Assembly: GCF_044324875.1 (NCBI RefSeq)
Contig: NZ_CP172185.1
DNA from: Escherichia coli
GTDB lineage: Bacteria; Pseudomonadota; Gammaproteobacteria; Enterobacterales; Enterobacteriaceae
Reading direction: 5' to 3' (one strand)
DNA length: 64,000 nucleotides
A program made the position numbers. This document shows positions 49,601 to 52,600 of the stretch, piece by piece (the first letter of the stretch is position 1; each line of letters starts with the position of its first letter).

Positions 49601-52600
49601 CATAATTCAGTACCTATAGTGAGTAAAATTAGAACAAACATAGCAACGGCTATGTTTTATAGCATAAGCTATACACAATGCAAATGATTATCATTAGTAA
49701 TTCAGACCCCAACACAGGCATTAGGTTGTTTCCTGCTGGCGATGTGGTATTGAGGAAAAGCGTAGGACAGATATCAGGCTTTGAAAGTAAGTGTTAAGTT
49801 AAGCGAACGCCGTATTGACGCTTATTTATTGGTGAGTACTACGTTCCATGGCAGGAGTTCGTCATATAGACGATTATCTCAGTAAACATATTTATCCCTC
49901 CTGATAATTGTCTTTAATGATATGTTTTTATTCTTTTTGAAATAACTCACAAAATGATAATCAGGTCTACACAGAAATGTGATACACATCTTGTTTTTTA
50001 AAGAAGAAAAATGACATTGCTCACATATTTATCTGGGTTTATATAAATAATGTAATTATTGTGAAAAGTAACTATTTGATTTTTAAGTATATATTCGCAA
50101 ATCAAATTAGTTAATATTTCAGAGAAATTAGAAGATCTTCACATTTATAAAATCAGAATGTGATTTTTATCTCGGTTTATTACTTGATGATAAAGTATTA
50201 AAGGTTTTAAATATTATGTTTGTATAGGAGTACAATTTTGGATATCTATTTTGACGACAGTTTGCTATCCCTGAATCAGAATTTTACATCTCCAGAAGAT
50301 GGTATTCGTTATGCAGGTGAATTATTGCAGAAATCAGGAGCCTGTACATCTGATTATATTGAAGAAATGATCCACACATATCACGAATTTGGCCCAGTTA
50401 TTGTTCTGGATAATGGTGTGGCGATGCCTCATGCTCGACCAGAAAAGGGAGGATTAAAAAGTGCTTTCTCTGTGGTAGTAACAGAATTTCCAGTGATATT
50501 TCATCATCAGGAGTTTGATCCGGTGAATGTCATTATTGCCATCTGTGCCATAGACTCAGATACACATATTCATCTTATTCAGATTGTAGCTGATTTAATT
50601 GAAAGAAATATTGCGTCTTATGTGAGAAATAGTAGCAAAGAGCAGGTCTTATATTTTATCCAGAAATCAATAGAGAGGACGTTATGCTTAAAATAAGAAC
50701 TGTATGCGGCAATGGGATTGGTAGTTCATTAATGGCAGCGAATAATGTTAAAAAAATTTGTGAGGAAATGGGCATAAAAGCAGATGTAGCCTCGGTCGAT
50801 TTTGCTAACGCAGTTGGGGAAAATGCTGATCTGTATATCACTGTTAAAGAGTTTGCCTCACAATTTCCATCTCAGTATAGAGTCGCTGTGATCCGTAGTT
50901 ATGTACATAAGGTGAAAATTGAAGAGGATGTTAAAGATACTTTACAGAAACTGAGTCAATTCTGATATTTTACAGGGGGTATATTATGACATCAATTCTT
51001 TTAACTCTTACAGAAATCTTCAGTCAACCAGCCTTCCTTATGGGGATTATTTCTTTGGCTGGATTACTGTCATTACGTTCGCCACTTAATAAATTACTAA
51101 CTGGTACACTGAAACCAATCCTCGGTTATTTAATGTTGAGTGCAGGTGCCGGTGTGATTGTTTCAAATTTAAATCCTCTGGGTGGTATTATCGAAGCTGG
51201 ATTTAATATAAGAGGCGTTATACCTAATAATGAAGCGATCGTATCAGTAGCTCAGAAATTACTTGGTGTGGAAACCATGAGCATTTTATTGCTCGGATTT
51301 ATTTTTAATCTTGTCATTGCACGATTTACTAAATATAAGTACATATTTTTAACAGGACATCATTCATTCTTTTTAGCGTGCTTATTTTCTGCGGTATTAC
51401 AGGCTGCGCATTTTAGTAACGGGGAATTGGTCATTATAGGCGGTTTCCTGCTGGGAGCATGGTCTGCGATTTCTCCAGCAATCGGGCAACGTTATACCAG
51501 ACGAGTGACTGAGGATGGAGGGATTGCCATGGGACACTTTGGCTCCTTGGGTTATTATCTGTCAGCCTGGATTGCAGCGAAAGTTGGTAAAGCAGACACA
51601 TCATTTGCTGATACTGAAATTTCTGAAAAATGGGGCTTCCTGCGTGATACCACAGTGACTACCGGTATTGTAATGGTTGTTATTTATCTGGTATGCAGTA
51701 TTGTTGCTGGTTCCGCATATATCAGTACAATTACCGAGCAGAATCTGGTGACCTTCTCCATCCTGTCCGGTCTACAGTTTGCGGTAGGAGTTGCTATTGT
51801 CTACAGTGGTGTGCGTTTAATCCTAGGCGATCTTGTCCCCGCATTTCAGGGGATTAGCCAGAAACTGATACCGAACTCAATTCCGGCTGTTGACTGTGCG
51901 GTATTCTTCACTTTCAGTCCTACTGCAGTGGTGATTGGCTTTATCTGTTCTTTTTTAGGTGGCCTTGTTGGTATGTTGATACTGGGGGGGGTTGGTATGG
52001 CGCTGATTATCCCTGGCATGGTTCCGCACTTCTTCTGTGGTGGTACCTCTGGTGTATTTGCAGATAAGCTTGGAGGTAAAAAAGGTTGTATTATTGCGTC
52101 GTTTATTGGCGGTATTTTCCTCGCTTTTTTACCCGCAATGTTGTTACCTGCACTGGGAAATCTCGGTTTTGAAAACAGTACCTTTGCAGACTTTGACTTC
52201 GCTGTATGGGGGATTGTTATCGGTGAGGCCTTTACTCACTTCGGACAAATTGCTGTTTATATTATTTGTGCTGTTATGAGCCTGGTATTACTGATCCCGT
52301 TTGCTTTTAAATCCATAAAAGTTGTAGGAAATACAATGAGCTATGAAGAGTTAACGAAAAAAGATTATGCTGACAAGTAAACACAATATTAGTGTAAAGT
52401 ATTAAGGAGTTGTTATGGCTATAATTACTATAGGACTATCCTGTTTTGACCAGTTTTTTTATATAAACAGATGGCCAAAAGAGAATACTAAAAACTTTTC
52501 CTGTGATTTTATTGAAAGTGGTGGCGGCCCCTGTGCCAATGCAGCATGGTTGCTGGGTTTATGGGGCGAGTGTGTGTACTTCTCAGGCCATCTACAAAAC

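Follow-up and report, generated by a model that had tools for sequence, protein, structure and literature searches.

The closest described relatives of the control region considered here are the promoters of sitABCD operons, whose operators were reportedly mapped by Ikeda in 2005 and by Runyen-Janecky in 2006. Repression of sitABCD by MntR and Fur, described for Salmonella and Shigella (PMC3852070), is now established in Salmonella, Shigella and pathogenic E. coli (PMC3852070, PMC8264917, PMC8970401, PMC3212961). In a Salmonella fur mutant sitA is up 53.8-fold (PMC3212961), sitA-lacZ is under Fur and MntR control (PMC8970401), and the sitA MntR sites of E. coli, Salmonella and Shigella have served to build MntR matrices (PMC3182930). 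The genes mntH, mntS and mntP are MntR targets as well (PMC11647493, PMC8632737), and MntS has itself been proposed to derive from the SitA signal peptide, with the link to MntR being kept (bioRxiv 10.1101/2023.06.02.543501).

The locus that we compare with these systems lies in a 64-kb stretch of E. coli DNA (64,000 nucleotides, hereafter the window), and it consists of a complete sitA followed by a fragment of sitB (Table 1). As sitA is encoded on the minus strand, the MntR and Fur elements are located upstream of the gene. Its reading frame contains no frameshift and no stop, and the product is a binding protein of the ZnuA/TroA family (Pfam ZnuA PF01297, E = 4.6e-86) that is 98% identical to SitA from an intact operon. 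The homology to sitB ends at about 48556, inside the Walker A codons (GVNGSG/K), and a tblastn search with SitB matches the window over SitB residues 1-51 only. SitC and SitD have no tblastn match in the 64-kb window, i.e. the window does not hold the complete set of sitA with the ATPase gene sitB and the permease genes sitC and sitD. The gene had been called an orphan in a preliminary description of this DNA, and since the window contains about 45 codons of sitB and neither sitC nor sitD, the term is appropriate. Neither mntR nor fur is located within the 64-kb window; both are core genes of E. coli and we therefore assume that they are present in the genome.

Table 1. Coordinates of the genes and of the putative regulatory elements at the sitA locus (positions in the window; distances are from the sitA ATG).
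Feature	Position	Strand	Description
sitB remnant	48556-48689	-	approximately the first 45 codons, from alignment to intact sitB; then IS66-family debris
sitA	48689-49603	-	intact ORF, 304 aa, periplasmic metal-binding protein
MntR operator (putative), box 2	49636-49657		AAACATAGC-N4-GCTATGTTT, -54 to -33
MntR-like box 1	49655-49676		GTGTATAGC-TTAT-GCTATAAAA on the sitA strand, 19 bp upstream of box 2
Candidate extended -10	49656-49664 (hexamer 49656-49661)	-	TGC-TATAAA, -61 to -53, within box 1
Candidate -35	49678-49684	-	TTTGCA or TTGCAT, -81 to -75, overlapped by the Fur box
Fur box cluster (putative)	49674-49704		best 19-mer 49680-49698, ACTAATGATAATCATTTGC on the sitA strand, -95 to -77

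Upstream of sitA lies the inverted repeat AAACATAGCAACGGCTATGTTT, here termed box 2, in which two 9-nt arms of 100% complementarity flank a non-symmetric 4-nt centre. Agreement is found at 9 of the 11 symmetric pairs, so "almost perfect", the wording of the preliminary description, is a fair one for the repeat as a whole, and the 9+9 arms are in fact perfect. When up to three mismatches were allowed, the pattern of the two arms was matched nowhere else in the 64 kb, and shuffled sequences lead one to expect 0.04 matches. The arms are identical to those of the MntR operator of E. coli K-12 mntH at 18 of 18 positions. Box 2 also matches the enterobacterial MntR pattern AACATAGC-N4-GCTATGTT, with the core ATAGC-N4-GCTAT, as do the sites at mntH, mntS and mntP.

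A scan with position weight matrices had been suggested as a check of the proposed MntR and Fur sites, and it was carried out for both motifs. The MntR matrix was symmetric and was built from four K-12 sites only (mntH, mntS/rybA and the two of mntP), taken from the K-12 genome. On this matrix box 2 scores 26.1 bits, which is within the range of the training sites themselves (25.3-29.5 bits), and it still reaches 22.5 bits once mntH is removed. As a control, a matrix from which the K-12 mntH box was left out gives this box 25.7 bits. The best unrelated match in the 64-kb window is at about 12 bits, and the 99.99th percentile of the background, calculated over approximately 145,000 positions, is 8.7-9.6 bits. 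The resemblance to an MntR operator is thus borne out both by the score and by the identity of the arms with those of mntH.

The Fur-like box had been placed 25 bp away from the palindrome, and this is indeed the length of the gap between box 2 and the sequence aatgattatcatt (49683-49695). The best 19-mer, ACTAATGATAATCATTTGC, agrees with the classical Fur consensus GATAATGATAATCATTATC at 15 of 19 positions. A search of the window with this consensus at up to three mismatches found no match, because the site has four mismatches, which are at outer positions. A 19-bp Fur matrix was rebuilt from 11 K-12 promoter regions that Chen et al. name as confirmed by footprinting or gel shift (fepA-fes, fepD-entS, fepB-entC, fecA, fecI, fhuA, fur, tonB, cirA, fhuF and exbB). 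On this matrix the site at 49680-49698 scores 19.06 bits and is the top match in the 64-kb window, the next best being at 14.5 bits; equally high scores are found at 5 of 151,195 background positions. The training sites score 11.6-22.6 bits (10.6-20.9 bits when each is left out in turn), and the sitA site exceeds 9 of the 11. The experimentally established Fur box of K-12 mntH, which was held out as a control, reaches 18.2 bits and has satellites at ±6 bp, i.e. the sitA box scores above a known site. Real Fur sites form overlapping clusters with 6-bp offsets (Chen et al. 2007, PMC2189734). The same kind of clustering is seen here, with weaker registers starting at 49674 (12.07 bits) and 49686 (8.75 bits) on either side of the one at 49680.

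Nine complete E. coli chromosomes, most of them from chicken, contain the block made up of sitA, the truncated sitB and the IS66 debris at 98.8-99.2% identity, and the nearest intact sitABCD is that of strain CFSAN061770 (97.8% identical). For a closer comparison, the upstream region of the window was aligned with six others, which came from one orphan copy, one intact relative, an additional allele on a chromosome and three alleles on plasmids, among them pAPEC-O2-ColV. Box 2, including its 4-bp centre, does not vary in these seven E. coli alleles, the stretch from there down to the start codon is essentially constant, and the Fur core TAATGATAAT(C/T)ATTT is nearly invariant. In other words, the E. 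coli sitABCD operons of chromosomes and ColV plasmids have the same box 2, nearly the same Fur core and the same order of operators as the window, and the sitABCD operons of Salmonella Typhimurium, Shigella flexneri and APEC share with it the gene, the operator types and their order upstream of sitA. The -35 region is a point of difference, since it reads TTTCAT or TTACAT in the other E. coli alleles and TTGCAT here. A further difference is in what the promoter serves: in the intact operons it drives all of sitABCD, whereas here only sitA and a sitB stump of 45 codons are left.

Other sit loci remain homologous to the window up to about -156 to -187 from the ATG. In the closest lineage the homology reaches -261, i.e. 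position 49864 of the window, which is past all of the operators, so the whole regulatory region has been retained. An island of PTS, kinase and aldolase genes starts at 49928. From these comparisons we consider it very probable that the region is the native promoter-operator of sitABCD, left intact on a remnant of the operon. As the repression of sitABCD by MntR and Fur is already established, what is recognised here is a familiar pair of operators on a new, truncated copy. The intact cis elements, taken together with the published control of sitABCD, suggest that the orphan sitA is probably still regulated by metals.

One could object that the sites are intact but dead, i.e. that sitA is barely transcribed, or is driven by read-through, and that metal regulation has been lost or has become irrelevant. 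The operon is after all truncated, with sitB cut and sitC and sitD missing from the window, and sit homology gives way upstream to sequence leading into the PTS island. There are two promoter-like matches directed towards sitA at 50114-50086 and 49983-49954; these are not above the level of shuffled sequences, in which 3.5 would be expected. Between the coding sequence of the orphan lineage and the nearest intact sitA there are 5 nonsynonymous and 6 synonymous codon changes, a number too small to decide whether selection acts on the orphan gene. On the other hand, 260 bp upstream of the ATG with all operator and promoter elements have been kept, and the window is the same as the nearest intact sitABCD relative at every operator position. 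The reading frame is undisrupted, and the same protein is encoded, with two synonymous differences, by the orphan sitA of E. coli ECCNB12-2, the one chicken chromosome of the nine that was compared codon by codon; a matching sitB junction is annotated in that strain. We thus regard decay into a silent relic as unlikely, and continue with the reading of an intact native promoter-operator.

The conservation of the arrangement was also followed outside E. coli. For this, sitA homologues were collected from a species-level genome collection, in which the matches listed contain no Escherichia or Salmonella loci; the E. coli alleles discussed above were taken from other collections. Among the matches listed, an MntR box is found upstream of sitA in all 22 of the other Enterobacterales loci, the weakest one being that of Pantoea Mb-10 (9.4 bits). 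Several of the 22 genomes are closely related, so they correspond to roughly ten independent lineages. Among the matches listed, a Fur box followed by box 1 and box 2 at fixed distances is seen again upstream of sitA in Enterobacter, Lelliottia, Shimwellia, Pluralibacter, Citrobacter, Klebsiella, Cedecea, Erwinia and Pantoea. The centre of the best Fur match lies 23.5-24.5 bp upstream of the MntR-type box that is farther from sitA in most of the Enterobacterales promoters listed. The sequences that flank the operators diverge between genera. The alphaproteobacterial and Pseudomonas homologues among the matches listed are without an MntR box, and many of them have a GCAAATGCAAATCATTTGC-type box instead.

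Box 1, which lies between the palindrome and the Fur box, was overlooked in the preliminary description. On the sitA strand it reads GTGTATAGCTTATGCTATAAAA and spans -73 to -52 from the ATG. Its score on the MntR matrix is 11.2-13.0 bits, i.e. above the 99.99th percentile of the background and far below the proven sites. It is quite possible, if not quite our expectation, that the strong palindrome is the only MntR operator and that box 1 is just a -10 region that resembles a half-site. The low score would be in agreement with this, as would the fact that the right arm, GCTATAAA, also serves as a -10-like hexamer. Moreover, the left half-site of box 1 is variable within E. coli (TATAGC, TATTGC or TATAGG) and degenerate in Citrobacter. 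The core is perfect in the lineage of the window and in plasmid p181.1, and has one mismatch in the other three alleles.

Several observations speak against such a dismissal of box 1. The full core ATAGC-N4-GCTAT occurs just twice in the 64-kb window, at 49640 and 49659, i.e. 19 bp apart and both times at the sitA promoter, and shuffles give an expectation of 0.06. When the second-best match to the MntR matrix was sought within about 390 bp of each promoter, it was found exactly ±19 bp from the best one in 20 of the 22 Enterobacterales sitA promoters among the matches listed, and in several genera the upstream box outscores the downstream one. A pair of boxes with the same 19-bp offset is also present at K-12 mntS. 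The four ATAGC/GCTAT half-sites of the two boxes are spaced 9-10-9 bp from centre to centre, which would put all four on approximately the same side of the helix. As a tentative proposal, it is conceivable that the conserved design of sit-type promoters is a double MntR operator, with the -10 inside one box and the Fur array approximately 24 bp off. If so, two MntR dimers could be bound side by side, possibly in a cooperative manner, and this would make the response to manganese steep. This tandem geometry may go beyond common knowledge, and its conservation is a modest clue to the way in which promoters of the sit type are repressed by MntR.

On the sitA strand the elements follow each other in the order Fur 19-mer, -35-like sequence, box 1 with its -10-like hexamer, and box 2. 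Note that the placement of the core promoter is ambiguous. The candidate -35 was read from the sequence and is not statistically singled out, simple sigma-70 hexamer scoring gives several weak and similar candidates, and an alternative -10, TATGTT in the right arm of box 2, scores about as well as TATAAA. A promoter scan gave no sigma-70 match at sitA, because TATAAA is without the final T. By analogy with mntS we infer that box 2 overlaps the -10 and the start site, and that transcription would start at about 49648-49650, within box 2. Whichever -10 is chosen, the core promoter would be tiled by the three sites, a layout that is usual for repression by occlusion.

The mechanism that we propose is as follows. 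MntR dimers loaded with Mn2+ would occupy the strong palindrome and probably the weaker tandem box as well, while Fur with Fe2+ would occupy the cluster further upstream. Fur would then cover the -35 region, box 1 the spacer and the -10, and box 2 the likely start. Since manganese or iron could each block RNA polymerase in this way, sitA would be transcribed only if manganese and/or iron are scarce. The 53.8-fold effect of Fur on sitA in Salmonella (PMC3212961) agrees with the position of the Fur box over the -35 region.

Instead of being a DNA operator, the palindrome might act at the level of RNA, as an attenuator or terminator-like hairpin in the 5' leader of sitA. A consensus scan does classify the repeat as terminator-like on the sitA strand, with a 9-bp stem and a 4-nt loop followed by GTTCTAATTT, and when the fold of the leader is predicted, its principal helix is formed by the palindrome. 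The folding energy of this leader is ordinary (z = -1.4; 18 of 200 shuffles were equal or better), and Rfam gave no match. In 18 orthologous promoters the inner TAGC/GCTA pairs alone are kept and never vary, while the outer four pairs of the stem are unpaired in 8-12 of the 18 sequences. Such a combination of fixed inner and unpaired outer positions is what the half-sites of a sequence-specific protein look like, rather than a conserved stem. The arms are in addition identical to those at mntH, a known MntR operator, and the likely start within the palindrome would leave its left arm untranscribed. We consider a hairpin function extremely improbable, and treat the palindrome as a DNA operator.

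Two K-12 promoters resemble that of sitA, each in a different respect. At mntH the MntR half-sites AAACATAGC and GCTATGTTT are identical to those of box 2, and a Fur cluster with ±6 bp registers is located upstream of the MntR box, as it is at sitA. The central 4 bp are different (CGTT at sitA and AAAG at mntH, on the gene strand), and mntH carries just one full MntR box, located at -34 from the ATG, without the 19-bp tandem partner that is present at sitA. Additionally, mntH is under OxyR control. The mntS (rybA) promoter, on the other hand, shares the tandem arrangement, i.e. a weak upstream and a strong downstream MntR-type box 19 bp apart, and it has a TATAAT at the junction of the two boxes that is similar in position to the candidate -10 of sitA. 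The annotated 5' end of rybA is inside the main box of mntS, 7-8 nt downstream of this TATAAT. Unlike sitA, mntS has no Fur box (the best match there is 2.7 bits).

The control region of the orphan sitA is thus predicted to respond to manganese and iron, and its sequence cannot be told apart from the control regions of functional sitABCD operons. By this likeness, SitA should appear in such strains only under metal limitation, for example in a host. This is relevant to the interpretation of transcriptomes from strains that carry this sitA remnant, and it bears on the question of whether the orphan SitA could partner with SitBCD encoded on plasmids. The locus also illustrates how pieces of an operon may remain under the control of its former regulators, as the origin proposed for MntS from SitA presupposes, and the orphan sitA may represent an early stage of this "regulated remnant" route. 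Like the tandem geometry, this parallel with MntS may add to what is commonly known. The products of the two genes are quite different at present, as mntS encodes a protein of 42 aa and sitA a binding protein, and the signal peptide of SitA in the window is a short and ordinary one, unlike the MntS-like type.

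Upstream of sitA the MntR operator match is not isolated. A second, weaker MntR-like box (box 1) precedes the main palindrome (box 2), and the same 19-bp phasing of two boxes is found in 20 out of 22 other Enterobacterales sitA promoters (among the matches listed, within loci L006-L036) as well as in K-12 mntS, where the second box lies at 1574-1595 of locus L004. The tandem arrangement comprises four half-sites with a centre-to-centre spacing of 9-10-9 bp. The K-12 mntH promoter (L003, 1741-1753) has an additional isolated CATAGC half-site (TGGCATAGCATGAAACATAGC...), 12 bp upstream of the MntR box, an arrangement unlike the 19-bp tandem of sitA and mntS.

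In Enterobacter, Lelliottia, Shimwellia, Pluralibacter and Citrobacter (aligned block, L006-L017), box 2 is followed at a distance of 6-8 nt by a short conserved block with a consensus of about AATTTAACCAC; the window contains a similar sequence. The block is presumed to lie within the sitA 5' leader and may represent either a leader element or another -10 region, alternative to the candidate one. Many alphaproteobacterial sitA homologues (L024-L085, among the matches listed) carry a GCAAATGCAAATCATTTGC-type palindrome in place of the MntR box, which is consistent with Mur/Fur-type control. This type of control has been reported in rhizobia.

Features of the sitA region (window coordinates)
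Feature	Position	Remark
571-aa ORF	44639-46354	UvrD-like helicase C-terminal motif and ankyrin repeats
Rpn/YhgA-like (Transposase_31) recombination-promoting nuclease	46423-47412	follows the 571-aa ORF
IS66-family transposase, C-terminal fragment	47886-48206	adjoins the chimeric ORF
Read-through of the sitB stump into unrelated sequence	48318-48556	yields a chimeric ORF of 123 aa
Sequence similar to the conserved block	49615-49630	AATTTTACTCAC (sitA strand)
Box 1	49655-49676	exactly 19 bp upstream of box 2
Rearrangement junction	49825-49927
PTS-EIIA/EIIB/EIIC, PfkB kinase and class II aldolase island	from 49928

Within the rearrangement junction, identity to the orphan locus of chicken E. coli falls off over clustered mismatches (49825-49843) and ends at 49864. 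In related E. coli strains about 12-19 kb separate the sit locus from the PTS/PfkB/aldolase island, which indicates that this DNA has been deleted in the window. On the other side of sitA, no Pfam domain was found in the chimeric ORF. Given the adjoining transposase fragment, the loss of sitBCD was probably an IS66-associated event. The 571-aa ORF and the nuclease beside the sit remnant are content typical of mobile islands.
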